Part shown: positions 1,875 to 53,177 of the stretch, piece after piece | Layout of the letters: each line of letters opens with the position of its first letter | How positions within the stretch are numbered: position 1 is the stretch's first letter | NCBI GenBank assembly: GCA_039679715.1 | Contig: JBDKUM010000235.1 | Location: forward strand, 1-53,177 | Origin: Phycisphaerales bacterium | GTDB taxonomy: Bacteria > Planctomycetota > Phycisphaerae > Sedimentisphaerales > UBA12454 | Direction of reading: 5' to 3' | Length of the DNA: 53,177 nucleotides | Program-made: the position numbers and the translations under genes | Notes under the pieces: generated by a model | What the model saw: only the letters and a program-made list of their open reading frames with translations | Database searches by the model: none | What the model was told of the DNA's origin: nothing

Positions 1875-1942
1875 GTTCAAACTCCCTTTAAACATTGTCT
1901 ATATAAATTGTAAATCGCATTTTCCACATGTCAAATCTTTTA

Positions 1943-1971
1943 TTGACCATATCCCGATTGGGCTGTACTAT
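1943..1971 (+). promoter_or_regulatory. Sigma70-type promoter, probably giving a leaderless nnrD-aroF mRNA
   Basis: TTGACC-17-TACTAT, 6 nt before ATG 1978, no SD. Confidence 0.65.
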
Positions 1972-1977
1972 ATTGTT

Positions 1978-2841: not shown

Positions 2842-2843
2842 CA

Positions 2844-3863
2844 ATGATTGTAATTATGAAACAAGGCGCTTCCCAGCAGGATGTTGCCAACGTAGTAAAA
2901 CTTGTAAATGAATATGGCTTGAAAGAGCATGTTATCGTCGGCACCAACCGCACGGTCATCGCATGTCTAGGCGATAAACGCAATGTCGATAAAGGCGCAA
3001 TTGAACATGCGTCGAATGTCGAACGCATAGTTCCGATTCTCGCACCATATAAAATCGCTTCACGCGAAGTAAAAAAAGAAAACACGCAAATAAAAATCGG
3101 CGACAAAGCTTTTCCGCTTGGCGGCCCGAAGGTCGGCATCATTGCAGGCCCATGTTCAGTCGAAAATGAAAAGCAGCTTTTGTACACCGCAGATAAAGTC
3201 GCCGCCGCAGGCTGCATCGGCCTTCGCGCAGGTGCGTTTAAACCTCGAACAAGCCCGTATGCTTTCCAGGGCCTTGGCATTGAAGGTTTGAAGTTGTTAG
3301 CTAAAGCGAAAAAGAACACAGGCCTCGCGGTCGTTACCGAAGTTGTCGCCGTTGAGCATATCGAGATTGTCGCCGAGTACGTCGATGTGCTTCAGGTCGG
3401 CGCACGAAATATGCAGCACTATCCATTGCTTGAAGCTCTGGGCAAAGTCAAAAAACCTGTTCTGCTCAAACGCGGCATGAGCGCCCAGCTCGATGAATTT
3501 CTGCTCGCCGCCGAATATATCATCAACGCCGGCAACACGCAGGTAATTCTCTGCGAACGCGGCATCAGGACTTTCGAAGATTATGTCCGCAACACATTGG
3601 CTCTTGCGATAGTGCCGGAGTTGAAAAGCAAAACACATTTGCCGGTTGTCGTCGACCCTTCGCACGGCACAGGTCATTCGCATTTGATTCCCGCAATGTG
3701 CAGGGCAGCGATTGCCGCCGGTGCAGATGGTCTGCTAATCGAATGCCACCACGATCCGCAGCATGCGTTAAGTGACGGCGCGCAATCGATAACGCCCGAA
3801 GCGCTTGAACAATTAATGAAGCAGATTAAAGCAATTGCAAAAGCAATCGACCGCGACGTGTAA
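2844..3863 (+). CDS. aroF: DAHP synthase (type I-beta, N-terminal regulatory domain)
   Basis: [36 protein letters not shown] and VDPSH motifs. Confidence 0.93.
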
Positions 3864-3865
3864 AA

Positions 3866-3955
3866 AAATAACCAAATTTCAATTTCCAAATTCCAATATT
3901 TATCCTGGTTATTGATTATTAATTGTGATTTGTTTCTTGGTTATTGGTTATTTAT
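3866..3955. repeat. Degenerate 7-bp tandem repeats in inverted arrangement
   Basis: aaataacc/aaatttc/aaattcc arm facing ttggtta-ttggtta arm; similar block at 15203-15277. Confidence 0.6.
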
Positions 3956-4015
3956 TAAACTGTGCCGAATGCACTCCACAATTTTGATTTTTGCATTAAG
4001 ATATTTTTAGTATTA

Positions 4016-4067
4016 CAGTGTAAATCTGTGTTAATCCGTGTCTTAAAAAACCGTGTAAATTTGTGTC
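4016..4067 (-). repeat. 9-bp-period tandem repeat element (ACACGGATT family)
   Basis: Reverse complement closely matches 27098-27148; related copy at 30386-30438. Confidence 0.8.
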
Positions 4068-4703
4068 TTAAGTCAGTTCTACTGACCAGTATGCATGGTC
4101 GAGGAATTGTTTCCAGCTATGATACCTTTCGTGTGAAAGGTGCAGGTGAACAGTAGGATTGCGTTTCGGTTTGACAGGCACTTTAATCAGCGTCATATTC
4201 GCTTCTTTCGGCGTTCTGCCGCCTTTTTTCGCGTTACATTTCGTACACGCGCAAACTAAATTTTCCCATGTCGCAGCGCCGCCGGAACTTTTGGGAATGA
4301 CATGATCGAGAGATAATTCAGAAGTGGGGAATTTTTTACCGCAATATTGACAGCGATTGCTGTCGCGAGCGAAAACATTTCGCCTGTTAAACTTTACATC
4401 ATTGCGGGGAAGTCTGTCATAAAACAGCAGCCGCACGATTCTCGGAACCGCGATATTAAAATTGACCGTCGTAATCCAATCGTGCGCATTAGGCTCAAAC
4501 GTCAGTTTCATTGCGCTGATATCGCGCCAGCTTTCAAAATCGTAATTATAATATTGGCCTTGTTCGTAGGAAATGACTTCGGCAAGATCTCTGCAGAGCA
4601 GGCAAAGCGCCCGCTTGACATTTACAATGCGCAGCGGCATGTAGTGTTTGTTCAGAACAAGCACACTGCACGTTAAACCAAAATTTGGTTCTGCAAGTAA
4701 CAT
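4068..4703 (-). CDS. HNH endonuclease (McrA-like)
   Basis: VLVLN N-terminus; RD..CQYCG, LDHVIPKSSGG, WENLVCACTKCNAKKG. Confidence 0.9.
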   Translation of the reverse strand: MLLAEPNFGLTCSVLVLNKHYMPLRIVNVKRALCLLCRDLAEVISYEQGQYYNYDFESWRDISAMKLTFEPNAHDWITTVNFNIAVPRIVRLLFYDRLPRNDVKFNRRNVFARDSNRCQYCGKKFPTSELSLDHVIPKSSGGAATWENLVCACTKCNAKKGGRTPKEANMTLIKVPVKPKRNPTVHLHLSHERYHSWKQFLDHAYWSVELT

Positions 4704-4793
4704 TATTCCTCTCGCCTGCTTTCGATGATTTAAATACCATAATCAATCGCTTTTATCAAGTAAAATTTATAGTTTTTAAATCTAAAAACCGTT

Positions 4794-4846
4794 GTAGGGG
4801 CAGACCCATGTGTCTGCCCGGGGCGAACACGCAGATTCACCCCTAC
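4794..4846. repeat. GTAG-type REP doublet (family A)
   Basis: tgtaggggcagacccatgtgtctgccc-gggcgaacacgcagattcacccctaca inverted pair. Confidence 0.85.
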
Positions 4847-4946
4847 AATACAACAAAAGTTTTTTTCCTGTGAATGGTTCAATTCTCAATTGCCAATTCT
4901 CTTTTTTTCGTTTATAAATAGCCATCAATCTTAACGGAGTGCACAA

Positions 4947-6053
4947 ATGTTTGATAAAGCGGTAAAAACAGTTTTGTTGTTAGTTTCTTTCCTTACAATC
5001 CAATGCCCGACTGTTCTTGCGGATGATGCAATTGATAATCCTTATATCGTAAATGTGCCGATTGAATCGCGTTCAATTACCGCTGAAAATCCAACCGGCG
5101 AAAAAGGCAAAGGCGGAATGACCGCCAGCAACATCGGCGTTGGCAGAAAAGGCAGAGCATTGCTGAATATCGACCCGGGTGAAAAAATCACGCTTTGTGA
5201 AATAAAAGGGCCCGCCGTCATCCGAAGAATGTGGGTTACTCTGCCATCCAAAAAAGAAAATCTTTTGGGGTTCGTAATCCGCGGCTATTGGGACGGCCAG
5301 AAAACTCCATCAATCGAAGCGCCAATCGGTTATTTCTTCGGCTCCGCTCACGGCATCACAAAAGCATATCAATCCGCCGTGCATTCCATGACCGATACCG
5401 CGGGCATGTCGATTTACTTGCAAATGCCTTTCCTCAAAAAAGCGAAATTCACAATCACAAACGAAGGCCCTGAAAAAAATGTGCCTTTCTATTATCAGGT
5501 CGATTATACGATAAATGAAAAATTATCAAACGATATCGGCCGCCTGCACGTTTCATATCATCGCGAAAATCCGACAACCCTGGGCGAAGATTTTACAATT
5601 TTATCCAAACGCACCGGCATGGGCCGTTTCATGGGTTGCGTACTTGGCATTAACAACGCTGATAACAAATGGTGGGGCGAAGGCGAAGTTAAAATGTACC
5701 TCGATGGCGATGAAAAATTCCCAACCATCTGCGGCACAGGCACCGAAGATTACATCGGCCACGCATGGGGCTTCCACAACAATGCCTTCATGTTTGGCGG
5801 CATGGCTTTTCGCGACGACAAATTATACACACTCTATCGCTGGCATTTGCCCGACCCGATTTATTGGAAAAAAGATATCCGCGTAACTCTCCAGCAAATC
5901 GGCGCCGGCGGCGTTCAGGGCGGCGGATACTACAACAAACAGGAAGACGTTACCGCAGCTGCATTCTGGTATGAACCGATCCCGAGCGCACCTTTGCCCG
6001 AATTTGCCGATTACAAAACCCGCATCGCTCCCGGCTACACGCTCGCGGAATAA
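4947..6053 (+). CDS. DUF2961 / GH172-family glycoside hydrolase, secreted
   Basis: Signal peptide; WWGEGEVKMYLDG, GTGTEDY and YRWHLPDPI motifs. Confidence 0.85.
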   Translation: MFDKAVKTVLLLVSFLTIQCPTVLADDAIDNPYIVNVPIESRSITAENPTGEKGKGGMTASNIGVGRKGRALLNIDPGEKITLCEIKGPAVIRRMWVTLPSKKENLLGFVIRGYWDGQKTPSIEAPIGYFFGSAHGITKAYQSAVHSMTDTAGMSIYLQMPFLKKAKFTITNEGPEKNVPFYYQVDYTINEKLSNDIGRLHVSYHRENPTTLGEDFTILSKRTGMGRFMGCVLGINNADNKWWGEGEVKMYLDGDEKFPTICGTGTEDYIGHAWGFHNNAFMFGGMAFRDDKLYTLYRWHLPDPIYWKKDIRVTLQQIGAGGVQGGGYYNKQEDVTAAAFWYEPIPSAPLPEFADYKTRIAPGYTLAE

Positions 6054-6067
6054 CAAAACGTACTACT

Positions 6068-6103
6068 ATCATTTCGAACGATGTGAAACGAAGTAGAGAA
6101 ATC
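6068..6103 (+). repeat. REP-like element (TCATTTCGA...GAGAAATC subfamily)
   Basis: Same ends as 18702-18748 (+), 13863-13898 (-) and 48593-48647 (-). Confidence 0.6.
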
Positions 6104-6169
6104 ATTTAATTTAGTTTCACGAAGTGAATCTTTATTGGATGTTCATGTTGAGCGTTCGATGTTGAACGT

Positions 6170-7327
6170 TCAAATTTCTCTTTTCACTCCATCTTTACCG
6201 TATTTCTTTTTGATTTTATCGAAAACTTCATCAATTTTTTTCTGCTTATTATCCACCGGCTCTGTAAAGAGTAATTTTTGTCCGCCGCCTTCGTGCGACA
6301 ACCCGCCGACACCGAATCCCAATAATCGCAGCTCTCCGCCTTGGGTTTCGTACCATTGCTCAAAAACTTTTTTTGCTTCCTGCCATAAAACTTTGCTGAT
6401 GTTTGTTGGTATTTCAAACGTATGACTTCTCGTTACCGTCCTGAAATTTTTATAACGTAATTTGAGCGTAATGGTTTTGCCTTCAACCTTATCTTCACGC
6501 AGCCTTGCCGCTACTTCCTCAACCTGATTAAAGAGTACCGAAAGCAGAAACTCTTTATCGCTGATATCGCGTGCAAACGTCTCTTCCGCCGACATTCTTT
6601 TTGCGTCTCTGAAAGGTTCTACTTCTCTGTCGTCGATTCCTTGTGCGAGCAGGAGTAAATCTTCAGCCTGGTTACCCATGACAGTCTGCAAAGTCTTTAA
6701 AGACGTTTTACGAAGCTGCTGTATTGTATTTATGCCGATTTTATTTAAAGCCGCCTCCGTAACTTTCCCGACTCCCCAGATTTTAGAAACGTTCAGAGGG
6801 TCAAGAATCTGCTGCTTGTTTTCCTTTGTGATAATTACAAAACCGTCCGGCTTTTGCAAATCACTGGCGAGCTTTGCCAGAAATTTATTTGGGGCGATCC
6901 CCACCGATGCAGTCAGGCCGGTCTCATTTTTGATTCGTGTTTTTATTTCGCGTCCGATTTTTTCAGCCGAACCGAAAAGAGCCGTAGACCCGCTGACATC
7001 AAGAAAGGCTTCATCCAGTGAAAGCTGCTCGACATCAGGCGTGAAGTCGTGAAAAATGCCCATGATTTGTTTTGATAATTGACTGTATCTTTCCATTCGC
7101 ACCGGAACTAAAATTACATTCGGGTAAAGTTTAAGTGCCTGCGTAGTGGGCATAGCCGAATGAATTCCGAATTTGCGTGCCTCATAAGATGCCGCCGCCA
7201 CAACTCCTCGCTGCTCAACAGTCCCTCCGACAATCACCGGCTTTCCCTTAAGCGATGGATTGTCCATCTGTTCGACAGATGCGTAAAACGCATCCATATC
7301 AACATGCAAAATATATCTTGTCTGCAT
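6170..7327 (-). CDS. dinB: DNA polymerase IV
   Basis: HVDMDAFYASVE, SYEAR, SLDEAFLD and NKFLAKLASD motifs. Confidence 0.95.
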   Translation of the reverse strand: MQTRYILHVDMDAFYASVEQMDNPSLKGKPVIVGGTVEQRGVVAAASYEARKFGIHSAMPTTQALKLYPNVILVPVRMERYSQLSKQIMGIFHDFTPDVEQLSLDEAFLDVSGSTALFGSAEKIGREIKTRIKNETGLTASVGIAPNKFLAKLASDLQKPDGFVIITKENKQQILDPLNVSKIWGVGKVTEAALNKIGINTIQQLRKTSLKTLQTVMGNQAEDLLLLAQGIDDREVEPFRDAKRMSAEETFARDISDKEFLLSVLFNQVEEVAARLREDKVEGKTITLKLRYKNFRTVTRSHTFEIPTNISKVLWQEAKKVFEQWYETQGGELRLLGFGVGGLSHEGGGQKLLFTEPVDNKQKKIDEVFDKIKKKYGKDGVKREI

Positions 7328-7449
7328 GACGGTAATTATACCCCATTGAATTTTTGGACAAAGCTATTTTTACCGAAAAGTGGTAGTATCTTAATGGCTA
7401 TAGAAAAAGCGCGCACTTTATTTGGAGAATAAAATCGGAGGAAATGATT

Positions 7450-7653
7450 TTACTTTATCAGTTGAACGTTTTCAGCGCGTGGGCCTTTGTCGCCTGCACC
7501 TATTTCAAAGCTGACTTTATCGCCTTCGTTGAGAACTTTTAAAGATTTCTCTTTAAAGCCTGTATGGTGAACAAAAATATCCGGCTGACCTTTGCCGTCT
7601 ATAAAACCATAACCCTTTTTAGGGTCAAACCATTTAACAATTCCCTCTGCCAT
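7450..7653 (-). CDS. Cold-shock protein
   Basis: GIVKWFDPKKGYGFI (RNP1), DIFVHH (RNP2), KGPRAENV; start MAEG at 7653. Confidence 0.92.
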   Translation of the reverse strand: MAEGIVKWFDPKKGYGFIDGKGQPDIFVHHTGFKEKSLKVLNEGDKVSFEIGAGDKGPRAENVQLIK

Positions 7654-7715
7654 GGGAAATTCCTTTAAATATATGAGCAATCGACTGACTTTTGTCGATT
7701 GTTACGATAATAAAA

Positions 7716-8039
7716 TTATGCCTGTGTTGCTTCTGAGCCGTTATTGTCGTCATCATCAACGCCAAGCTTTTCTTTCATCAGACGGCCCATTTTAAACTTT
7801 ACTGTACGTTTAGATGGTACTTCAACTCTTTCCAGAGTCTTGGGATTTTGTGCTACGCGTGCTTCGCGAGTTCTTACTTCAAACACTCCGAAGTCACGGA
7901 ATTCCAAACGGTTATTTCCAATAAGCTCGGAAATTATTTCGTCAAGAAACGATTGAACAACACGTTTTACTACAACTCTTTTAGCTTGTGTCTGTTCTGC
8001 TATCCTGTCAATTAATTCTTTCTTCGTTACTGTTCCCAT
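7716..8039 (-). CDS. HU/IHF-family DNA-binding protein
   Basis: TKKEL, EFRDFGVFEVR, AQNPKT and VKFK motifs. Confidence 0.92.
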   Translation of the reverse strand: MGTVTKKELIDRIAEQTQAKRVVVKRVVQSFLDEIISELIGNNRLEFRDFGVFEVRTREARVAQNPKTLERVEVPSKRTVKFKMGRLMKEKLGVDDDDNNGSEATQA

Positions 8040-8343
8040 TAGAGTACCTCGTACAGAGAGTTATAATATTTTTTAAGCTGCATTAGGCTGCAATACACTA
8101 AATTATTTCTATTATTTTTTGCACTTATTCGTCAACAAATTCATCAAAACTAGATACCTTTTTATTCGACAAACCTTATTGCACTTAAGAGCAATTTTAT
8201 TATTAAAAATAAACCGCAAACCACTATACAGCAAAGACTTCTAACCATCAAGTAATTTTTCAATTTTTTTAAGCCAAATACTTAAAATTGCCCTTAATGA
8301 GTTTGAAACTGACAAAAATTCTAAGGTGAAAACGGTATATCCA

Positions 8344-8372
8344 TTGACTAATTTGCGCAAATAGGCCATAAT
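8344..8372 (+). promoter_or_regulatory. Sigma70-type promoter for the NfnAB-like operon
   Basis: TTGACT-17-CATAAT; RBS GAAAGG before TTG 8410. Confidence 0.65.
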
Positions 8373-8409
8373 CCGCTTTCCGAAAAAAAAGATAGAAAGG
8401 CGATGTAAA

Positions 8410-9258
8410 TTGTCACATAAGATATTGTCTAAAAAGAACTTAAGTAAGGATGTCTTTATCGCGGATATTGAAGCCCCGCTGGTCGCTTCGGCAGCTAAAG
8501 CAGGGCAATTTGTAATTGTTTGTCTCAAAACATCTTATAGCGAGCGCATACCTCTTACCATAGCAGGAACTGACCTTAAGAATGGCACAATCCGGCTTGT
8601 CTGGCAGGCGATAGGCAAAAGTACTGTTGAATTAGGCAATATGCAGGTTGGCGATGAAGTTGAAAACATCCTCGGCCCGCTTGGCAAACCGACCCATATT
8701 GAAAAATTCGGTACAGTTCTTTGCGTTGGCGGAGGCATCGGCAACGCTCCTCTGCTTCCAATCGCCAAGGCCATGAAAGAAGCGGGCAATAAAGTTATAA
8801 GTATACTGGGAGCAAGAAATAAAGAGCTTTTGATTCTTGAAGATGATTTCAAAACCATTAGCGATGAACTTATTATAGTAACAGATGATGGCTCTTACGG
8901 TCGTAAAGCAGTCGTTACCGTCCCGCTTGACGAGATTTGCCAGAGAGAGAAAGTCGATCTGGTTGTCGCCATAGGCCCGACAATAATGATGAAATTCGCA
9001 AGTCTGGCAGCAGCCAAACATAACGTTCACGTTGTCGTATCTCTTAATACTATAATGATTGACGGTACAGGTATGTGCGGCGGATGTCGCGTTGAAGTCG
9101 GCGGAAAAACAAAATTCGTTTGCGTTGACGGCCCTGAATTCGACGGCCGGCAGGTCAATTTCGATTTAATGATGAAAAGAATGCAGGCATATAAAAAACA
9201 GGAACAGCAGGCTCTGGAACAATATAAACATAAATGCAAAATTGGACTTGAGAAATAA
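8410..9258 (+). CDS. NfnA/SudB-like FAD- and [2Fe-2S]-binding subunit
   Basis: ERIPLTI, GPLG, GGGIG, MIDGTGMCGGCRV and CVDGPEF motifs. Confidence 0.9.
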   Translation: MSHKILSKKNLSKDVFIADIEAPLVASAAKAGQFVIVCLKTSYSERIPLTIAGTDLKNGTIRLVWQAIGKSTVELGNMQVGDEVENILGPLGKPTHIEKFGTVLCVGGGIGNAPLLPIAKAMKEAGNKVISILGARNKELLILEDDFKTISDELIIVTDDGSYGRKAVVTVPLDEICQREKVDLVVAIGPTIMMKFASLAAAKHNVHVVVSLNTIMIDGTGMCGGCRVEVGGKTKFVCVDGPEFDGRQVNFDLMMKRMQAYKKQEQQALEQYKHKCKIGLEK

Positions 9259-10727
9259 TGAACGACGAACAATTGCTAGAAGAACTTTTGAAAAAACACA
9301 AAGCTGGAACCTTGAAACCAGCAGATAGGTATAACATTCCTCCGCAGGCAATGCCGCAGCAGGATGGCGCTGTTCGCCGTTCTAACGTAAGCGAAGTTGC
9401 GCAAGGTTACTCTGAAACACAAGCAAGGCTGGAAGCTCTCCGCTGCCTCGGCTGCAAAAATGCGCCATGTATGGAAGGCTGCCCGGTAAAAATAAAAATC
9501 AAAGATTTCATCGCCCAGATCGTTAATGGCGATTTCCAGAAAGCTCTGGATATTATTCGTGAAAACTCTCTTTTACCTGCTGTTTGCGGCAGAGTTTGCC
9601 CGCAGGAAGTCCAATGCCAACTGCCTTGCACAGTCGGCAAGAAATTCAAAGATGTGAATATGTCCGTTTCGATTGGCAGACTTGAAAGGTTTGTCGCCGA
9701 TTGGGGCAGAAAGCAAAAAGATAGTTCCGCACCTGCGATCGCGGCTCCAACAGGCAAAAAAGTTGCAATTTTAGGCGCAGGCCCCGGCGGAATTGTCGCC
9801 GCCGCCGATACCCGCAGAGCAGGGCATGATGTAACTGTTTTTGAAGCGTTCCACAAGCCCGGCGGTGTTATGGTCTACGGAATCCCTGAATTTCGTCTCC
9901 CAAAAGCGATAGTACAGGAGGAAATTGAGCAGCTTAAGAAGATGGGCGTTAAAATTATATGCAATTTTGTCGCAGGTCGAACCAAAACCATCAAAGATTT
10001 AATGCAAAAGGACGGTTTTGACGCTGTTTATGTAGGCGTAGGGGCGGGTTTGCCGATGTTTATGAACATCGAAGGCGAACATTTAATTGGCGTTTACAGT
10101 GCCAATGAATATTTAACCCGCGCAAATTTAATGCGTGCATATGACTTCGGTAAAGGCGCCGACACTCCGATTGCGATGTCTAAACGTGTCGCGGTTGTCG
10201 GAGGCGGAAACGTCGCGATGGATGCCGCAAGAACAGCCGTTAGATTAGGCGCAGAAAAGGTTTATCTGATTTATAGACGCAGCGAAAAAGAAATGCCCGC
10301 TCGTATCGAAGAGGTTCACCATGCAAAAGAAGAGGGCATTGAATTCCATCTCTTGCGAAATCCTAAACGAATCATTGGCAATGCGGAAGGCATTGTTACA
10401 GGCATTGAATGTTTGAAATACGAGCTTGGCGAACCGGATGCATCGGGCAGAAGAAGACCTGTCCCGATTGAAGGTTCAGAATTCACAATTGAAGTTGATA
10501 CGGTCGTTGTAGCGATAGGAAATGGCGCAAATCCGCTCATCGGCCAGACCACCCCCGGCCTTGAACTTACAAAGTGGGGTAATATCGTTGTTGATGAAAA
10601 ATGCGCAACTTCTATTAAAGGCGTCTACGCCGGTGGAGACATTGTTCTCGGTGCCGCGACTGTAATCCTTGCAATGGGTCAGGGCCGAACCGCCGCGGCG
10701 GCAATCAACGAATATTTAAAGAAATGA
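9258..10727 (+). CDS. NfnB/SudA-like (GltD-like) NADPH-dependent flavo-iron-sulfur subunit
   Basis: RCLGCKNAPCMEGCP, CGRVCPQEVQC, YGIPEFRLPK, GGGNVAMDAAR; overlaps the stop of the NfnA-like gene. Confidence 0.9.
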   Translation: MNDEQLLEELLKKHKAGTLKPADRYNIPPQAMPQQDGAVRRSNVSEVAQGYSETQARLEALRCLGCKNAPCMEGCPVKIKIKDFIAQIVNGDFQKALDIIRENSLLPAVCGRVCPQEVQCQLPCTVGKKFKDVNMSVSIGRLERFVADWGRKQKDSSAPAIAAPTGKKVAILGAGPGGIVAAADTRRAGHDVTVFEAFHKPGGVMVYGIPEFRLPKAIVQEEIEQLKKMGVKIICNFVAGRTKTIKDLMQKDGFDAVYVGVGAGLPMFMNIEGEHLIGVYSANEYLTRANLMRAYDFGKGADTPIAMSKRVAVVGGGNVAMDAARTAVRLGAEKVYLIYRRSEKEMPARIEEVHHAKEEGIEFHLLRNPKRIIGNAEGIVTGIECLKYELGEPDASGRRRPVPIEGSEFTIEVDTVVVAIGNGANPLIGQTTPGLELTKWGNIVVDEKCATSIKGVYAGGDIVLGAATVILAMGQGRTAAAAINEYLKK

Positions 10728-10769
10728 TTTTCGGATAAAGACTGTTGTTCACATTTTTTATTTCCTTAT

Positions 10770-10864
10770 GGAATCTCTACTAATTTTAAAGCAAGAGATT
10801 GCTTCGTCGTTTTTTGCGCTAAAAGCCCAAAAAACTCCTCGCAATGACATTATTAAAGATTTTC
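10770..10864. repeat. MITE/REP-like element family C (GAGATTGC...CGCAATGAC core with imperfect terminal inverted repeats)
   Basis: Same architecture at 33267, 39038, 49139 and 52993. Confidence 0.8.
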
Positions 10865-10875
10865 TTATATTTAAT

Positions 10876-11305
10876 AGGGTAAAGGTATAAGGTATAAAAA
10901 GGAAAGCTGAACTTCCAAGGTCTCAATGTAAAAAATTTTTAATTACCACAAATCAAACTTATCAAACAAAAATAACAGAGCCGGCAGCACAGCGGCAGAT
11001 AAAAGGAAAAATTAAATATTCCCAGTCGTAAAATACGCCGGGTTATTTAGTTTACTTTTTCCCAATCACGGTAAAAGTGTCGGGTTCTTTAGTTAGTTAA
11101 TTTTTCCCAGCCACGATAAAAAGTGCGGGGTTCTTTACTTAGTTACTTTTGCCGGTCACGATAAAAAGTGCCGGGTTCTTTGCTCTAATAACCCCGCTGA
11201 TTGAATCGCGGGCTAAGTTCTGTCGTTTTTGGGCTCGGCCAAAGACTGCCAGACTCTGTCAAATTTAAACGCGCATTAGATTTATACCCTATGACCTTCT
11301 ACCCT
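10876..11305 (-). ncRNA. Candidate ~430-nt structured non-coding RNA, family not recognised
   Basis: No ORF; nested long-range stems (11281-11305 with 10876-10898; 11246-11260 with 10974-10987) enclose five similar hairpins; G-U pairs favour the minus strand. Confidence 0.6.
11021..11212 (-). repeat. Five tandem bulged hairpins at 40-46 nt spacing
   Basis: Units at 11021-11042, 11061-11084, 11106-11130, 11152-11174 and 11193-11212 with A-rich linkers mostly ending in GAAC. Confidence 0.85.
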
Positions 11306-11321
11306 TAGGCGGAACTTGCGC
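11295..11321 (-). promoter_or_regulatory. Motif GCGCAAGTTC-N4-TAAGGGTAGAAGG shared with the portal-gene upstream region
   Basis: 22/27 identical to 49511-49537 with the same spacing. Confidence 0.5.
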
Positions 11322-11631
11322 GAATTTTAATGAAATTAGTGAAATTTTTTTTCGGATTTTTTGTAAGCGGCTGTCAAATAATACCAATTGGCATTATTAC
11401 TCCGCGTCGAGAGGTTTGTAAGTCATTGAGTTAAGCGGAGCTTAAGCTTCGCTTAAGCCGCGGACAACTTCTCCCCAAGGGACGCTACGCGGAGTATTTT
11501 TGGGATCCGTATAAAAATGAATTTTTTTTTGGAAATTTTGAAATCGCAAGTTTTTACCTGCGCGATTTTGCTAAATCAGATTTTAAGAGGTCGCCTTAAA
11601 TTCAAACCAAAATTAAAAATTCCAATTTACT

Positions 11632-46761: not shown

Positions 46762-47614
46762 TGTGGAGCAGAATGGTCGATTTGCTTAAAGTGAAATAGC
46801 CGTTTTGAGTCAGTTTGTCAGGGTTGGAATCAACGAAGCATTTTAAGCAGGTCAGCATGATTATTACATTCAGGATATAAGATTTAATAAGAATAAAACT
46901 CAAAACGATAATGAATACCAAAGCGGTCTTGTAAAGTAAGGCCGCTTTTTTTATGCCCAGAGTGACAACCAGTGTTCTTTTGTTGACGGCTTTATCCGCT
47001 TTGTAATCAGGGAATTCATTTGCGAAGATTACCTGGAAAATTAAAAGTGCAACTAATAGTGAAGGCAACAAAGGAATCAAATTAATTGTTCCTGTTTGAA
47101 TATAATAAGCACCGTAGACAGGCAGAATGCCGAAGAGAAATCCGATGGTAATTTCACCTGCGGTACGGTAGCCAAGTTTTAGGGGCGGGGCGGTGTAGAA
47201 CATGCCGCCAAGCAGGCCGATGAAACCTAATAATAAAATTAAAATGCTTTTGGTAATTATTACGATAATTAAACCGAGGAGCGAACCACATGCGAAAAGG
47301 ATTAATGAGCCGGTTAAAACTTCTTTTTCGGATAAAAGTTTTTTTTGGATCATCTGGCTGCCGCCAGAATAGGATGAAGGATTCTGGTTGTACCAATCAT
47401 TTTTTGAAAGGCTGTCAAAATAATCATTAATTACGTTTGAGGCCATTTGGAAAAAGGACATTGAAACGGCTGCGAGGATGAATAAGAACATATTGAAATT
47501 ATGGGTGTGCGAATAAGCCAGGGAGGTGCCGAGAGCAATCGGCAAAATACTTGCGGTACAGAATTGTATTCTGACTTCTTTTAGCCACAGAGAAAATTTA
47601 TTTATTTTAGCCAC
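46718..47614 (-). CDS. menA: 1,4-dihydroxy-2-naphthoate prenyltransferase (UbiA family)
   Basis: NVINDYFD, YTAPP.KLGYR..GE and NEFPDYKADKAVNKRTL motifs. Confidence 0.8.
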   Translation of the reverse strand: MAKINKFSLWLKEVRIQFCTASILPIALGTSLAYSHTHNFNMFLFILAAVSMSFFQMASNVINDYFDSLSKNDWYNQNPSSYSGGSQMIQKKLLSEKEVLTGSLILFACGSLLGLIIVIITKSILILLLGFIGLLGGMFYTAPPLKLGYRTAGEITIGFLFGILPVYGAYYIQTGTINLIPLLPSLLVALLIFQVIFANEFPDYKADKAVNKRTLVVTLGIKKAALLYKTALVFIIVLSFILIKSYILNVIIMLTCLKCFVDSNPDKLTQNGYFTLSKSTILLHTIACFSQIIAALMI

Positions 47615-47740
47615 AGAGACCTAAACCTATGAAACCACGAATGAACTCGAATTAACACGAATATAAAATACGAGATAAGCAATGCATGCAGTTTAACAAG
47701 GTGACGCAAAATACAAAACTATATTCTTTTAAATATGAAA

Positions 47741-48085
47741 TCAATATGAGCCGCCGATAATACTATGAAATCCTATCATGAGAAATATAAAGGTAATTAG
47801 CCACCAAATTCCGCCAAGTAAAAAGCCTAATAAAATATTTATTGTGATTTCTTTGAATAACTTCAGTTTGTACAAAGCGGCTATAAAAATAGATGACGCA
47901 AACCAGAATGTAAGACCCATAGAATAGCAATGGATATCGAATACAAGACTATCTCGACTAATTGTCTTTACTCCAATAATATCGATAATAGCAATAATAA
48001 GCAAGAGTATGAACGCAATTGCCAAAAGGACAAATAGAGAATGTTTTATTTTATATTTTTTGTCATTTATGTGGTCGTTTGTCAT
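47741..48085 (-). CDS. Hypothetical membrane protein (3 TM)
   Basis: Hydrophobic ORF with ATGA overlap to the cupin gene. Confidence 0.6.
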   Translation of the reverse strand: MTNDHINDKKYKIKHSLFVLLAIAFILLLIIAIIDIIGVKTISRDSLVFDIHCYSMGLTFWFASSIFIAALYKLKLFKEITINILLGFLLGGIWWLITFIFLMIGFHSIIGGSY

Positions 48086-48573
48086 AGATATTTTTCTATT
48101 AATGCTTTTGCGTCTGGAAATTGCATTATAATCTTATCTTTATCAGCATGCTGGTAATCTGCAAATTCAAATCCGGGGGCGACGGTACAGCCAAGGAGAG
48201 CGAAATTACCGCCGGGAAGGAGTTTTGCAGCCTGCCAGGTGTCTTTAGGGACGATGGCCTGGGGTTTCTGGTTTTCAAGAAAATTTGTTCCAAGGATTAA
48301 TGTTTGCACTTGTCCTGTTTCGGTTATTTGTAACATTTCAACGGGGTCGCCAAAGTGGAAATGGAATATTTCATCACTTTTGACCTTATGCAATTTGGAA
48401 AAGCTTGCAGGCGTAATTAAATAAAGAATCGAGGTGGAAAAACAGCGTTGGCCTTGGTACCTTTGAGGTAGATTGTTTAATAATTCATGGGATCTGTATG
48501 TTTCAATGTAATAGCCGCCTTCGTTTGGAAGGGGAATCATGTTGAAAAATTTAATTATATCTTCTGGAGTCAT
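48082..48573 (-). CDS. Cupin_5 (DUF985) protein
   Basis: EGGYY.ETYRS, TSILYL, SDEIFHFH.G and CTVAPGFEFAD motifs. Confidence 0.9.
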   Translation of the reverse strand: MTPEDIIKFFNMIPLPNEGGYYIETYRSHELLNNLPQRYQGQRCFSTSILYLITPASFSKLHKVKSDEIFHFHFGDPVEMLQITETGQVQTLILGTNFLENQKPQAIVPKDTWQAAKLLPGGNFALLGCTVAPGFEFADYQHADKDKIIMQFPDAKALIEKYL

Positions 48574-48592
48574 TGGAATTACTTGTTTTTAA

Positions 48593-48647
48593 GATTTCTC
48601 GACTTCTTCTGCTTCGCTGAAGCTACGCAGAATCCGGTCGGAATGAC
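48593..48647 (-). repeat. REP-like element
   Basis: gatttctcgact...cggtcggaatgac. Confidence 0.65.
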
Positions 48648-48657
48648 AGGTGGACGG

Positions 48658-49113
48658 TTAATCTTCTTTCAAAACAATGTTATCATATTCGAGTTCGAAA
48701 CGCAGTTTATGTTTGGCTTCCTGTTGGGCGAGAGCGGTAAAAAGTTTTTTAGCTTCAGGGTCGGGAGACTGATTTGCGAGGTCTGTATATAAAGCGAAGG
48801 ATGCTTTTTCTTTTTTCATAGCAAGAGTGATGATGTCCTGATAACTCATATCATCAGAAGGCTTTATATCAACAACATAATCCGCGATCTTTAGATCTAC
48901 TATTTTTCCACCAGTTACAATTGGATTTTTACCTTTCTTTACGTCTTCCAGAATTTTTCTATGTCCCCGCTCTTCAGCAGCGAAATTTAAAAGCACTTCT
49001 TTCATTTCTTTATTTTTAGATTTTGAAGCCAAGGACTTGTAAAAATTAGATGCGTCTATTTCATTGCCTATAGCGAAATCGAGAATTTCATCGAGAATGT
49101 TAATTTTGCTCAT
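48658..49113 (-). CDS. Ferritin-like / rubrerythrin-family diiron protein
   Basis: Duplicated E..A..FY..LA / EERGH and E.AS..LY / QEAKH motifs. Confidence 0.9.
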   Translation of the reverse strand: MSKINILDEILDFAIGNEIDASNFYKSLASKSKNKEMKEVLLNFAAEERGHRKILEDVKKGKNPIVTGGKIVDLKIADYVVDIKPSDDMSYQDIITLAMKKEKASFALYTDLANQSPDPEAKKLFTALAQQEAKHKLRFELEYDNIVLKED

Positions 49114-49138
49114 TTTTGTGCCTTTAAAAAAAATAAGT

Positions 49139-49323
49139 GAACCACTAATAATTCGAAGAATTGAGATTGCCCACCTGAGGCGGGTAATCTTCTTTCTTGC
49201 AAATACCAGAAATTACTGCTCTGTAGAAAAATATATCAAACTGAAAAATGGGTACAGGCACAATTAGCCGCTAAAGACCGCGTCTAATTGAGTCAGTCCC
49301 CATTTTTTCATGACATTTCTACA
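49139..49323. repeat. Family C element with nested family B element (49244-49307)
   Basis: ccactaataattcgaagaattgagattgcc ... gggtacaggcac..gagtcagtcccca ... tgacatttct. Confidence 0.65.
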
Positions 49324-49510
49324 AAACAGAATAATTGTACAATAAAATGGATAAAAATCCAACATTATTATCATTGATTCAAATAAGGCAATTTCTCTAA
49401 ATGCGCAAGAAAATACCCTCACGTAAATTATTCTAAATTATTTTTCATTCTTATTCTACAAGCACTTACGTTCCGAAAGCAAAAATAACCTGCTCTGATT
49501 GATTATTTAT

Positions 49511-49537
49511 GCGCAAGTTCATTGTAAGGGTGGAAGG
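49511..49537 (+). promoter_or_regulatory. Motif GCGCAAGTTC-N4-TAAGGGTGGAAGG, 30 nt upstream of the portal gene
   Basis: Matches 11295-11321 (minus strand). Confidence 0.5.
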
Positions 49538-49566
49538 CAACATAAAACACTAATCGGAGATTATAA

Positions 49567-51090
49567 ATGGGATTCGATTTTACAAACTTTGAAACCACTG
49601 GTCTTAGCTCAAATTATATCGACTGGCTTGTTGATGAACAATGGGTCGATATGCAGAATCATTTCGGGAGATTATGGGATTATTATCAAAATCCAATGTA
49701 TTGTCCTGCGGGATTGTCGGCAGCGGACGCGAAAATGAATGAATCTGCTAAAACATACATTCAGGCGCAGGAGATAGGATTGCCGGCACGAATCACGGGT
49801 ATTAAGCGGACAACGAAAAGCGGTGTTGTCGGCGGGAAAGCGGCGGCGGATATAGAGAGAAAAGAAGTTGTTATTGAAAATGATATCGGCTGGCGAATAA
49901 ACGCGATGGTAGATTTTTTGTTTGGTAAAGGTGTGGATATCGTCAGCAGAGCGGAAGATACAAGCAGAAGAAAAGAAATTGATAAAATCATCAAATCTGT
50001 ATTTGACGCAAATGGGGGAGTAAGATTTTTCCAGGATATGGCAGTGCTGGGAGCTGTTTACGGGTTTGTCGACTGTATAGTACGGCCGGGGCAAAAAATA
50101 GCGGATTATTTACAAATGCCCAACATGAATTTAGGTGCTAACGAGTTAATGGAACTTATTAGTGACTGCAACATAGAATTGATTGAGGCTCAAAGAGCAT
50201 TGCCTATTCTAGACGAAAGAGATTATCGTAAAATTAATTTTTATGTTCAGCATTTTATTGAGCAGAAAAACGACATTGCATCAGAAGGAAATTTTTTAAG
50301 AAAATTACTTTCGCCGGGAAATGGTAATTCAGGGCGAAAATCGATAGCAGTTACGGAAATCATTTCTTCGGATTGGTGGCAGAGATATGAAGATAAAGAA
50401 CTTACCGCGGAAGGACCCAATATAATCGGCATACTGCCGGTGGTTCACATTCAAAATATAGCACAGCCATTATATTATGAGGGAATAAGTGATGTTGAGG
50501 CTCTCATTCCTTTGCAGGATGAATTGAATACGAGATTGAGCGACAGAGCAAGCAGGATAACTTTCCAGGCATTTAAGATGTATCTGGCGAAAGGAATCGA
50601 AGGGGTTGAGAACAGGGCTGTATCGCCGGGCAGAATGTGGTGTACGGATAACCCGGAAGCAAGTATTCAACAGTTCGGGGGAGATGGTAATTCGCCAAGT
50701 GAAGATTCGCATATAGCTGAAATACGTGAAGCATTGGATAAGACGAGCGGTGTAACGCCAGTTGCGGCGGGGGTCTTGAAAGACAAAATCGGAAATCTCA
50801 CAAGTGCGATCGCTTTGAAAATGACTTTGATGGGAATGCTCGCCAAGACTGAACGGAAGCATTACGCATACGGACAAGGCATTAAGGAAATCGCAGCAAT
50901 GATCATGCATGTGCTGGATGTGACGAAGATTTATCCAAATTCCAAAGATGAGAGGAATTTCGATGTGATTTTCCCAAGCCCATTGCCGGAGAATATGGCT
51001 GAAAAGCTTGAGGAGGCGAAAATGAAATTAGAGATTGGTGTTCGACAGGAACAGGTATTACGAGAGCTTGGATACGAGATGAAAGTGTAA
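49567..51090 (+). CDS. Phage portal protein (SPP1 gp6-like)
   Basis: 507 aa; VDFLFGKGV, N.IGILPVVHI.N, GISDVE.LI.LQDELN..LS and TSAIALK patterns of SPP1-type portals; RBS GGAG. Confidence 0.8.
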   Translation: MGFDFTNFETTGLSSNYIDWLVDEQWVDMQNHFGRLWDYYQNPMYCPAGLSAADAKMNESAKTYIQAQEIGLPARITGIKRTTKSGVVGGKAAADIERKEVVIENDIGWRINAMVDFLFGKGVDIVSRAEDTSRRKEIDKIIKSVFDANGGVRFFQDMAVLGAVYGFVDCIVRPGQKIADYLQMPNMNLGANELMELISDCNIELIEAQRALPILDERDYRKINFYVQHFIEQKNDIASEGNFLRKLLSPGNGNSGRKSIAVTEIISSDWWQRYEDKELTAEGPNIIGILPVVHIQNIAQPLYYEGISDVEALIPLQDELNTRLSDRASRITFQAFKMYLAKGIEGVENRAVSPGRMWCTDNPEASIQQFGGDGNSPSEDSHIAEIREALDKTSGVTPVAAGVLKDKIGNLTSAIALKMTLMGMLAKTERKHYAYGQGIKEIAAMIMHVLDVTKIYPNSKDERNFDVIFPSPLPENMAEKLEEAKMKLEIGVRQEQVLRELGYEMKV

Positions 51091-51172
51091 AGTAATAAGT
51101 TTAAAGTGAAAAGTGAAAAGTTGTGGACGCTTTTGCGAGAATGATAATGAAACATTTGTAGAAAGGTTTTTA

Positions 51173-51712
51173 ATGAGTCAGAATGACGCAGAAAATTTGA
51201 GTTCAGAAGAACAAGAACAAAGCAGCGATTCGGCAGCAGAACGAATTGAAGCCGGAAAACTCGTTGATGTGAGTGAAGCAATTCGTTATCGGAAAAGAGC
51301 ACAGCTTGCTGAACAAAAGAAAACAATTCTGGAACAGGAACTTGTCAGTAAAAAAAGTGAAATTGAGAAATTAAATAAAAATATTTCACAAATGAAAATT
51401 GAGAGAGAATTGATTGATAAGTTTGTTTCGGCAGGTGTACGAGATTTAGAAGCTGCTGTAATAATCGGCAGAAGCAAACTCGAAAAAGATTCAGAAACAA
51501 GTGCCAGCGAAGTGGTTGAACAGATGAGGAAAGAAAAGGGTTATCTTTTTAATGAGCCTTCATCTGTAAAAGTCAGTTCTAAGACAAGCGGTGTCAAAGA
51601 TAAGTTGTCGGGGACGACAGGAACTCTGGAACGTGCGGCGAAAAAGGCAAGTCAAAGCAGTTCAAGAGCGGCTTTGCAGGAGTACCTGCGAACGAGAAGA
51701 AATTTGGTGTAG
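51173..51712 (+). CDS. Putative capsid scaffolding protein
   Basis: Acidic N-terminus, coiled coil, K.YLF motif, basic C-terminal helix; lies between portal and capsid; start at ATG 51173 after GAAAGG. Confidence 0.65.
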   Translation: MSQNDAENLSSEEQEQSSDSAAERIEAGKLVDVSEAIRYRKRAQLAEQKKTILEQELVSKKSEIEKLNKNISQMKIERELIDKFVSAGVRDLEAAVIIGRSKLEKDSETSASEVVEQMRKEKGYLFNEPSSVKVSSKTSGVKDKLSGTTGTLERAAKKASQSSSRAALQEYLRTRRNLV

Positions 51713-51714
51713 CC

Positions 51715-51766
51715 ACCCCCTCTGAATTTTATATTGAGGAATAAAATTCCTGAAAAAATTCGGGGG
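51715..51766 (+). other. Intercistronic hairpin before the capsid gene
   Basis: ccccc.ctgaatttt ... aaaattcggggg; no U-tract. Confidence 0.45.
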
Positions 51767-51827
51767 CTTGCGCGTTGCTTCAGCAAAGGCACAAAGATAA
51801 TTTTGAAATAAAGAAAGGGAATAAATT

Positions 51828-52982
51828 ATGGCATTTACAGGTAAAGCAACATATTCAGCGGGCGTAACATTGCCCGAAATAGCAGAAGACGTTTCTGATA
51901 TTGTGGGAATCATATCGCCAGTGGAAACTTTTTTGCTTGACGCTTTAGGCGACCCTATGCGTGAGGCGAAAAGCACATATCATGAATGGCTTGAGGATTC
52001 ACTGATTCCGAATAAAGATAATATCAATGACGCTTCTATAAGCGATCCGGATGGCGAGACGAGTTTCAACGTTGCAAACGGAAACCGATTCAGAACCGGA
52101 GACCAAATCCAAGCGGCAGAAAGTGAAGAACTCATGCTGGTAACGGGTGTTTCGGATAATACAATTACAGTTGTTCGAGGATACGCGGGTACAACGCCTG
52201 AAAATATTACAAACGGACAAGTGATATTTATTTTAGGCAACGCGGCTCTTGAAGGTGATGATAAGCCTGCGACGAGATTTACAAACCGGGTTCGCTACGG
52301 AAACTACACGCAGATATTTACGGCCGGTGTTGAAGTCAGCGGAACGAATATCGCAGCAAGTCATTTGGGCATTTCGGATGAGATGGATTATCAGAAATCG
52401 GAAAGACTGCGCGAGCTTATTCGTGATTTGGAAAATACAGTAATTAACGGCGGTCAGGCTGCGGCTAATCCGCAAGGTTCAGGAACTGTTCGAAGGAGCA
52501 TGAAGGGTCTGGTTCAAAGCATTGCAACAAATGTTTTCAGGCCTGGCGATACAGGATTTCCGAGCGGTACAGGTCTGGATGAAGCAAAGCTTAATTACGT
52601 TCTTCGTCAGATTTGGGAGAACAGCTGCGGCAATGTTGATTTGATAGTTGTCGGAGGCTATCAGAAACGAAAGATTAATTCATTCCTCACTGCAAGCAGA
52701 AGCTTTGGTCCTGCTGATAAAGCTTACACTGATATGGTGAGCGTTTATGAAAGCGATTTCGGAGTATGCAGGATAATCACAAGCAGATGGGTTCCGCAAG
52801 ATGCTGTATTGCTCCTTGACACCTCACGTATAAGCGTTTTGCCTTTGGCAGGCAGAAGCTTCCATTTCAAACCACTTGCGAGCAGCGGCGATTATGAATG
52901 CGGACAGCTAATTGGCGAATACACGCTGGAATTCAAGAACGAAGCTGCACACGGGATTATCAGAGACCTGGCAATCAGCTAA
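51828..52982 (+). CDS. Major capsid protein (DUF5309/SU10-like, HK97 fold) with inserted beta domain
   Basis: EDVSDIV..ISP.ETF, HEWLED.L, NYTQIF, RRSM.GL, YESDFG, R.VP.D, GEYTLE..NE.AHG.I motifs. Confidence 0.82.
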   Translation: MAFTGKATYSAGVTLPEIAEDVSDIVGIISPVETFLLDALGDPMREAKSTYHEWLEDSLIPNKDNINDASISDPDGETSFNVANGNRFRTGDQIQAAESEELMLVTGVSDNTITVVRGYAGTTPENITNGQVIFILGNAALEGDDKPATRFTNRVRYGNYTQIFTAGVEVSGTNIAASHLGISDEMDYQKSERLRELIRDLENTVINGGQAAANPQGSGTVRRSMKGLVQSIATNVFRPGDTGFPSGTGLDEAKLNYVLRQIWENSCGNVDLIVVGGYQKRKINSFLTASRSFGPADKAYTDMVSVYESDFGVCRIITSRWVPQDAVLLLDTSRISVLPLAGRSFHFKPLASSGDYECGQLIGEYTLEFKNEAAHGIIRDLAIS

Positions 52983-52992
52983 CTGACATCCA

Positions 52993-53087
52993 GGAATCTC
53001 TAAATTCCAAGAATTGAGATTGCCGCGGTCGTCCAAAAGACTCCCTCCCTAAAGGGATTGAAATCGCAATGACATTTTTGGAGATAC
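52993..53087. repeat. Family C MITE/REP-like element directly after the capsid gene
   Basis: ggaatctctaaattccaagaattgagattgcc...cgcaatgacatttttggagat. Confidence 0.8.
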
Positions 53088-53095
53088 GTTCAGGA

Positions 53096-53170
53096 TTTTT
53101 CGGCCGGGTATGTATATCTACAAAACATCCATTTGCGTAAAGGGTAGATATTCGCCCGGCTGAAATTTTT
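53096..53170 (+). terminator. Long hairpin followed by a T-run; possible terminator of the head operon
   Basis: tttcggccggg pairs with cccggctgaaa and tatctac with gtagata, followed by ttttttt. Confidence 0.5.
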
Positions 53171-53177
53171 TTACCAT

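Follow-up and report, generated by a model that had tools for sequence, protein, structure and literature searches.

The 53,177-nt stretch analysed here (the window) is a complete contig, C235 (JBDKUM010000235.1), one of the 425 contigs in the 4.05-Mb, 97% complete assembly GCA_039679715.1 of a Phycisphaerales bacterium. Near its 3' end lie three intact open reading frames (ORFs) on the plus strand that encode components of a phage head: (i) a portal gene (49567–51090, 507 aa), which is the first gene of the cluster; (ii) a putative scaffold gene (51173–51712, 179 aa from the ATG at 51173; a GTG start at 51113 is possible and gives 199 aa, in an ORF of 51113–51712); and (iii) a major capsid gene of the SU10 type (51828–52982, 384 aa). 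A purine-rich run resembling a ribosome-binding site precedes each start, namely GGAG ahead of the portal gene, GAAAGG ahead of position 51173 and AAGGGA ahead of the capsid gene. An earlier interpretation made from the letters of the window alone (the sequence-only reading) had described three intact ORFs with clear ribosome-binding sites, as found here, and had taken them for a stand-alone portal–scaffold–capsid operon that is a candidate domesticated capsid or gene transfer agent (GTA)-like system. It placed the end of the window about 200 nt after the capsid gene; the measured distance is 195 nt, and the window stops there because it is the complete contig.

The portal protein belongs to the SPP1_portal family (PF05133, E = 2.7e-18, 66.6 bits against a Pfam gathering cut-off of 25.5) and matches the PHROG portal family phrog_64 (4.6e-24). 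It is the sole SPP1_portal match in a profile search of the genome contigs, and its orthologues occur in 78 of 86 related loci. The capsid protein belongs to the SU10_MCP family (PF17236, E = 4.2e-85, 286.2 bits against a cut-off of 24.1), with a match that spans profile positions 11–292 of 292. PF17236 is its only Pfam match at E ≤ 1, the PHROG match is the major head protein family phrog_1328 (8.9e-76), and the gene is single copy in the genome. The protein extends about 90 residues beyond the length of the 292-position profile, and residues about 80–145 (window 52065–52262) have weak PHROG matches to tail fibres (phrog_8469, 4.2e-4), which suggests an inserted surface domain. The protein encoded between the two matches Phage_scaffold (PF06810, 1.9e-5) at 25.1 bits, below the cut-off of 35, and had no match in PHROG; we designate it a putative scaffold from its position, size and coiled-coil-like composition and from its place between portal and capsid in relatives. 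Its orthologues, present in 79/86 related loci and always between the portal and capsid genes, align from the ATG at 51173, so the gene probably encodes 179 rather than 199 aa. The names that the sequence-only reading gave to the portal and capsid proteins are therefore secured above the Pfam cut-offs, whereas that of the scaffold has a weak match below it.

These three genes do not stand alone. In G011, a genome of the same genus, nine further genes on the same strand follow the capsid gene without interruption. Homologues of the G011 proteins map by tblastn, in the same order, to three other contigs of the assembly: C418 carries g220 (head–tail adaptor), g122 and g238; C133, on its minus strand, carries g152 (fibre-like), g376 (β-helix/DUF5123) with g147, g111 and most of g230 (baseplate hub); and C206 carries the end of g230, then f10 and g93, and further on f33. 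C235 and C418 overlap by 15 nt, the end of the former being identical to the start of the latter, on which the adaptor gene begins. The ordered homologues on C418, C133 and C206 thus give a cluster of about 10.5 kb with 12–13 genes rather than three, and the proposal of a stand-alone three-gene operon gives way to at least 9 more genes that are uninterrupted in relatives. Reading beyond position 53177 and searching for neck and tail genes, as the sequence-only reading had advised, yielded the adaptor, neck and tail genes, a fibre/spike cassette, the baseplate hub and two small membrane proteins.

Structural models support two of the downstream assignments. The AlphaFold (AF2) model of g220 (36 orthologues, predicted local distance difference test score [pLDDT] 86) had no Foldseek match at E ≤ 1e-3. 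Its top VIA re-alignments were to head–tail adaptor and neck proteins, including the Mu neck protein 5ydn (Z 8.4) and the SU10 tail chain 7z47_A (Z 7.3, root mean square deviation 3.3 over 91 residues), although VIA Z values of 7–8 are middling and such scores can reflect a common arrangement. The model also aligns in VIA with the phage 812 neck, the JBD30 connector, VP1, KHP30, N4 and Carin-1, and all of these alignments span its helical part, around an inserted β-barrel. Helped by the position of its gene directly after the capsid gene, g220 is a probable head–tail adaptor. The AF2 model of g230 (pLDDT 78; the protein has about 610 aa in relatives) had 59 Foldseek matches at E ≤ 1e-3, and all among the matches listed are baseplate hub or central spike proteins, namely the hub of an extracellular contractile injection system (1.3e-11), the HFTV1 tail, Mu gp44, the MuSo2 43-kDa protein, VgrG, T4 gp27 and siphophage Tal. 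The predicted fold supports the designation of g230 as the baseplate hub.

A variable cassette is located between g152 and g111. In the genus of this genome it consists of g376, which shows β-helix/DUF5123 matches in relatives, and g147; in other lineages it consists of f11-f15-f18-f29, in which f15 is the podophage GP4 fibre protein gp80 (PF23140, 2.7e-41), or includes the polysaccharide deacetylase f35. PF23140 (Gp80) has no match in this genome and belongs to the cassette variant of the other lineages. In its long forms, g111 includes a lectin domain of the Laminin_G_3 family. The cassette proteins are of kinds typical of phage receptor-binding regions, and the cassette turns over fast, with g376 pairs reaching only 34–48% identity. 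Of the small membrane proteins, g93 has a coiled coil after its single transmembrane helix, and f20/f33 has a lipoprotein signal plus a transmembrane helix; we infer from these features that they might act in release or in a spanin-like role. For the other proteins, similarity searches were less informative. Eight G011 proteins encoded 3' of the capsid gene and 10 L098/L053 proteins were scanned against Pfam and PHROG, which left g220, g122, g238, g147, f10, f18, f29, f20 and f33 without a structural assignment; PDB profile searches of g220, g122, g238, g152, g230 and g111 gave no significant match (best E 0.065–0.43); and tblastn found no match to g230 or g238 in isolate phages. The ESM Atlas offered weak leads, from g238 to the Ig-like domains of tail tip protein J (0.90) and from g152 to a tail fibre C-terminal domain (0.94). 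We do not claim g111 as a Dit-like protein: the basis would be its position before the hub, and a single unassigned Sipho_tail hit (0.0077) was obtained among 143 proteins.

The large terminase (TerL) is encoded elsewhere. The genome search suggested by the sequence-only reading found one TerL, of 487 aa, on contig C99 (L007 14163–15626), with Terminase_6N (1.6e-7) and Terminase_6C (1.3e-5) matches above the Pfam cut-offs; it is the only Terminase_6N match in the genome. The system is accordingly split across loci, as had been proposed. Upstream, the RNase P RNA gene rnpB (L007 13530–13946, minus strand; RF00010, 288 bits) is directly beside it, with a MatE transporter gene on the same side; downstream lies a gene for a PAS-LuxR regulator. 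C99 also carries genes for citrate synthase and a thioredoxin-reductase-like protein near TerL. TerL is unlinked to the head locus in every genome that has both genes on one contig. The distance is 13–66 kb within the family of this genome, and about 982 kb, 689 kb and 326 kb in the closed genomes G031, G037 and G038, respectively. Across 37 genomes, 80 of the 487 TerL positions are invariant, including the Walker A, Walker B and nuclease motifs. A cysteine cluster (C, R.C, C, C) at residues about 236–252 is also invariant in 37/37 aligned proteins and suggests a metal-binding insertion.

The neighbours of TerL vary across ten genomes. The PAS-LuxR gene is a close neighbour in G003, is a few genes off in G011 and is not near TerL in more distant genomes, and G037 has RpiB and sulfatase genes there. 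In three distant genomes (G031, G037 and G038; L175, L176 and L177), a P-loop ATPase gene and a GNAT-like gene lie a few genes upstream of TerL. RpiB is also upstream of TerL in G031 and G037, and in G037 a 138-aa protein with two helix-turn-helix motifs resembling sigma-70 region 4 precedes the ATPase and GNAT-like genes.

The sequence-only reading had noted that no integrase or terminase gene lies near the three head genes, and had described a host-maintained, phage-derived locus. Both observations held: C235 has no PF00589 match, the sole Terminase_6N match is on C99, and no integrase, replication or lysogeny genes were found nearby. The genome has 20 PF00589 matches, all on contigs other than C235, C418, C133, C206 and C99. 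With host genes as neighbours and TerL unlinked as well, these five contigs do not have the make-up of an intact or recent prophage (attachment sites were not searched for). Because TerL is far from the head genes and neither locus has integrase or replication genes, the system cannot move as a unit and is passed on with the chromosome. Its relatives among phages are remote. The best capsid in isolate phages is 32.4% identical (Sporosarcina phage Lietuvens), with 228/228 matching records below 60%; the best in IMG/VR, among the best 80 loci kept from 2.9 million viral contigs, is 39% identical; and the best phage TerL is 22% identical.

Another way to account for the cluster would be an element that is still mobile, whether a temperate phage or a satellite with a capsid of its own, and that integrates again and again at similar sites. 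Capsid-encoding satellites exist, and a D5-like primase-helicase gene lies just after the cluster in 3/86 loci, as in G011. The G011 gene (L021 15862–17361; PF19263, PF08706, PF03288; phrog_864, 8.5e-78) is located between g93 and f33; that of L034 comes right after g93, and that of L047 is close to the cluster. The primase is, however, absent from this genome by tblastn and from 83/86 loci, and may be a separate mobile element using the site. The five contigs without an integrase, a TerL up to about 982 kb away, single copies with trees that follow host families, and the lack of anything above 39% identity among the IMG/VR loci kept all count against such an element, which we consider highly improbable.

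The distribution of the locus was analysed in a panel of 41 Sedimentisphaerales genomes (this genome, G000, and 40 relatives). The capsid gene is single copy in 36/41 genomes, in 28/32 high-quality genomes and in 19/21 genera, and TerL is present in 41/41. Capsid identity is 85–89% within the genus, 77–85% within the family (full-length matches) and 59–75% within the order. Of 301 genomes sampled across the phylum, 41 carry the capsid gene, including nearly all sampled members of the class. G194, from another family of the class, has an intact portal–scaffold–capsid–adaptor run with TerL 68 kb away. In some other clades, capsids of 46–53% identity occur in families f63 and f46, both outside the class, and in three single genomes of other families, and more distant matches occur in one genome at 41% and in f27 at 33–37%; in four large families of the sample the gene is absent (0/15, 0/15, 0/10 and 0/10). 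We confirmed 252 capsid loci in host genomes, and the locus is present in the closed genomes G031, G037, G038, G194 and G228. Titles of the nearest genome records name Planctomycetota, Phycisphaerae or Sedimentisphaerales, a few bins being labelled otherwise, in line with the planctomycete host that had been thought probable.

The genes around the head locus belong to the host and change from lineage to lineage, with flanking families present in 8–16 of 86 loci compared with 42–83 of 86 for core families. Upstream of the portal gene, the divergent ferritin-like gene recognised in the sequence-only reading is a rubrerythrin gene (48658–49113; PF02915, 8.9e-21), and a Cupin_5 gene lies alongside. 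This neighbour raises the possibility of an encapsulin-like nanocompartment with rubrerythrin as its cargo, and the rubrerythrin itself has an EncFtn-like match below threshold (2.8e-4, 21.1 bits; cut-off 27). An encapsulin, however, would have no use for portal, adaptor, hub and terminase genes, and the rubrerythrin gene is on the opposite strand and adjoins the cluster in only 14/86 loci, so that an encapsulin is barely conceivable here. The likeness to encapsulins is that of a host-kept, phage-descended shell protein beside a ferritin-like gene; the differences are the portal, scaffold, adaptor, hub and terminase and a ferritin-like neighbour that is not conserved.

The proposal of vertical inheritance in Phycisphaerae was supported by single copies, trees that follow families, low ratios of nonsynonymous to synonymous substitution (dN/dS), and nearest relatives in hosts rather than in phages. 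The capsid tree (36 rows, leaving out G013, which is partial at a contig end, and G021, which is partial with a stop) places the family and the genus of this genome each in one clade with support 93, and family labels need 11 changes on it, against a minimum of 9 (0/200 shuffles as low). On the TerL tree (37 rows, leaving out G005 with a stop, G014 and G024, which are split, and G016, which is partial) family labels need 7 changes, the minimum possible. Patristic distances of capsid and TerL in 30 shared genomes correlate with r = 0.89 (Mantel 0/2000).

Selection was measured as NG86 medians over 22 non-overlapping close locus pairs. The dN/dS values are 0.077 for the capsid (22 pairs), 0.114 for the portal (16 pairs), 0.119 for g152, 0.148 for g220, 0.158 for g122, 0.166 for the scaffold, 0.172 for g238, 0.185 for g230 and 0.347 for g111, with 0.13–0.30 for flanking host genes; TerL has 0.094 over 31 pairs. 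Relative to the genus, protein identity is 88% for the capsid and 81% for the portal, compared with 56–77% for adjacent host genes. These values bear on the notion that the genes are what is left of an ancient prophage, functionless, in decay and still present only by chance. Such remnants would be expected to have no lysogeny, replication or integrase genes, as here, and the few interrupted copies in relatives and the host repeats inserted in spacers also fit with decay. Against it stand intact frames in nearly all of the 36 to 41 genomes across eight families, dN/dS values of 0.08–0.19 despite saturated synonymous sites, invariant TerL catalytic motifs and two unlinked loci that diverge together. 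Neutral remnants would not outlast order-level divergence; decay is strongly disfavoured and, in our judgement, very unlikely.

The excerpts of Kogay et al. 2022 (PMC9662315) used here characterise GTAs, or viriforms, by tailed-phage proteins, endogenised genes often spread over several loci, and mostly vertical inheritance; further criteria in those excerpts are that the element's own genes cannot be packed in one particle, that the cargo is mostly random host DNA, and that it is delivered to other cells. The present system has (i) proteins derived from tailed phages (portal, capsid and TerL by Pfam, adaptor and hub by fold); (ii) endogenised genes at several loci, set among host genes on contigs that have no integrase, with TerL unlinked; and (iii) capsid and TerL trees that follow family labels and co-diversify (r = 0.89), with the host tree given by taxonomy codes. 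Particle production, a cargo of host DNA and delivery would be expected of such a system from its gene content. Because TerL is conserved and its catalytic motifs are intact, DNA packaging appears to be the selected activity, which favours a GTA-like viriform. We therefore regard the cluster as probably a vertically inherited, selectively maintained candidate GTA-like viriform, with TerL kept as a lone distant gene.

Several observations weigh against this interpretation. The first group concerns the tail. The whole tail module is absent from 5 of the 50 loci whose sequence extends 8 kb or more past the capsid gene, and the g230 hub profile finds nothing in 3/3 genomes of genus g2, in the family of this genome, or in G025, 2/2 closed f8 genomes and 2/2 closed f10 genomes (G031, G037, G194 and G228). 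The head genes of tail-less lineages nevertheless have omega values of 0.07–0.12 (two pairs); since they are under selection without a tail, a tail-dependent delivery role cannot explain those lineages. The second group concerns gaps and interruptions. The capsid gene was not found in 5/41 relatives (88–96% complete) that have TerL, four of which also have no portal gene, whereas the fifth has an 83-aa portal piece with a stop. TerL has an in-frame stop in G005 and is in two pieces in G014, G024, G028, G035 and G275, and the G021 capsid match contains a stop; these copies are either pseudogenes or assembly errors. The third concerns gene content: no small terminase, endolysin, tape-measure protein, protease or dedicated regulator was recognised in the cluster, and searches of protein families and the PDB gave nothing significant for g122, g238, g152, g111 or f10. 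The last concerns the data themselves. The trees are quick IQ-TREE searches in which family and genus label codes represent the host phylogeny; synonymous divergence between this genome and its genus relatives is saturated (dS 1.6–3), and selection rates were therefore taken from other, closer pairs. In one RNA run, which comes from the study that also supplied the best DNA holder, metatranscriptome contigs are identical to 51441–51604 (scaffold) and 52298–53065 (capsid) with 0 differences. They give a weak hint of expression of the scaffold and capsid genes, with DNA carry-over possible; the same run has no contigs over the portal gene or the upstream genes at 47600–49087, and this uncovered stretch carries no evidential weight.

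The portal piece of the fifth capsid-less genome (G015:C15:22014–22262) comprises 83 N-terminal residues with an in-frame stop; TerL is intact in this genome, and the capsid is found in 0/2 genomes of its genus. It would result from loss of the head locus or from a gap in the assembly. G038 has a second phage-like run (L117, G038:C1:4181000–4200999; 608–11433, plus strand) at 209 kb from its capsid gene. The run encodes a phrog_442 head–tail adaptor, a protein of 765 aa, glycosyltransferase-like and methyltransferase proteins, and a distant homologue of g230, found in G038 alone; it may be either a relocated tail module or an unrelated piece of prophage.

The tail-less lineages leave room for a domesticated capsid system with no role in tail-mediated transfer. 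The particles of such a system would be released tailless heads filled with DNA, a PBSX-like killer or defective particle, or a means of defence, and the tail would be a losable accessory. A head core and TerL that stay under purifying selection in tail-less lineages, the wider retention of TerL (41/41) than of the capsid (36/41), and the fast turnover of the fibre/spike cassette (34–48% identity in g376) agree with this idea. By contrast, the tail module is complete, with hub and fibres, and under purifying selection in 45/50 long loci, every GTA property that can be checked in sequence was found, and Pfam and PHROG scans recognised no toxin, cargo or defence gene in the cluster. We consider a system of this kind unlikely, though credible. 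The head-plus-terminase core seems to be the unit under selection, with a tail that may be replaceable or dispensable.

Within the preferred interpretation of a GTA-like viriform, the following sequence of events can be proposed from the gene families. A host signal would lead to transcription of the operon, and the hairpin after the capsid gene (described below) could reduce read-through into the later genes. The capsid protein and scaffold would assemble on the portal ring, and because no protease gene was recognised, maturation would resemble that of P22 or SPP1. The unlinked TerL would fill the heads with DNA, after which the adaptor, neck, fibres and hub would be added, and the small membrane proteins may aid release.

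The hairpin (53092–53173, plus strand) is a long, terminator-like structure followed by a U run and is located between the capsid gene and the adaptor gene of the next contig. Its predicted energy is −29.4 kcal/mol (z = −4.57; 0/200 shuffles as stable). A terminator-like hairpin at this site had been reported by the sequence-only reading, and the fold and the U run agree with it; it was unlisted in a simple terminator scan because its loop is long. Rfam gave no family match within 48900–53177. Interspersed host repeats of about 70–90 nt occur at three places: (i) at 49219–49308, in the 453 nt that separate the rubrerythrin gene from the portal gene (no more than 8 other copies by blastn against this genome); (ii) at 51710–51791, between scaffold and capsid (a further 19 copies, spread over 17 contigs); and (iii) at 53013–53083, 3' of the capsid gene (19 other copies on 18 contigs). 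A spike in read depth of the DNA run coincides with the first. The second is inserted in this lineage only, as G011 of the same genus has a 50-nt spacer without a repeat. Copies do lie on both sides of the locus, as had been claimed, but these are ordinary interspersed repeats, and the third copy, inside the operon, had been overlooked.

Among known systems, RcGTA (Rhodogtaviriformidae, Alphaproteobacteria) has terL at the head of its cluster and an HK97-type (PF05065) capsid with a protease. It is alike in having a head–tail cluster of similar size, no integrase or replication genes and more than one locus. The present system differs in its SU10-type capsid (PF17236), its scaffold, the lack of a recognised protease, a lone TerL elsewhere and another host phylum. 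With a capsid that matches only PF17236 and TerL on another contig, it is not an RcGTA-like cluster, the RcGTA side being compared by description only. The differing capsid family, the scaffold, the lack of a recognised protease and the unlinked terL favour an origin independent of RcGTA. RcGTA also shares vertical inheritance, co-diversification and purifying selection, according to the same excerpts (PMC9662315). These excerpts describe the BhGTA 'genome' as probably dispersed over several loci (PMC9662315). Brachyspira VSH-1/BhGTA and Bartonella BaGTA are alike as independent exaptations of tailed phages, compared by description only, and differ in their hosts, which are spirochaetes and alphaproteobacteria.

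In Bacillus, PBSX occupies a single uninterrupted prophage-like region that includes regulators and lysis genes of its own, and it forms a killing particle. Defective prophages of this type, as PBSX is generally understood, likewise have chromosomally fixed particle genes without self-propagation; the present system differs in its unlinked terminase and its conservation at the order or class level. Phage SU10 and other PF17236 phages share the capsid family, the similarity of the g220 model to the SU10 tail adaptor chain, and the GP4-type fibre in the cassette of relatives. They differ in that capsid identity to isolates is at most 32%, and the present system has a gp27/VgrG-like hub as in long-tailed phages and no replication or lysis modules.

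A full-text literature search, with subscription journals and supplements outside its scope, yielded no account of a GTA or a domesticated capsid system from Phycisphaerae, Sedimentisphaerales or Planctomycetota; the one hit on GTA-like elements and Planctomycetota dealt solely with GTAs of Alphaproteobacteria. GTAs with experimental support are few. The excerpts of Kogay et al. cover three independently exapted groups, in Alphaproteobacteria and spirochaetes (PMC9662315). An excerpt of another report (PMC10945688) describes a cultured member of Phycisphaerae that releases hexagonal particles without lysis, which were attributed there to an extrachromosomal 21.9-kb phage; any link between those particles and this locus is speculation.

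We tentatively suggest, at a confidence somewhat short of even, that the cluster represents the first, independently domesticated GTA lineage in Planctomycetota, derived from a phage with an SU10-type capsid and common to Sedimentisphaerales and other sampled Phycisphaerae, and perhaps to further planctomycete clades. Its terminase would be a lone gene, and a head–terminase core that outlives tail loss in some lineages hints at a second, tail-independent use of DNA-filled capsids. In practical terms, virus-prediction tools will probably call the locus a prophage. The lineages with and without tails provide a natural comparison for what keeps such systems under selection. If the suggestion is correct, a particle system has been domesticated independently and class-wide in a phylum with unusual cell biology, and it would constitute a route of gene exchange in the sediments, wastewater and anoxic habitats where Phycisphaerae are abundant.

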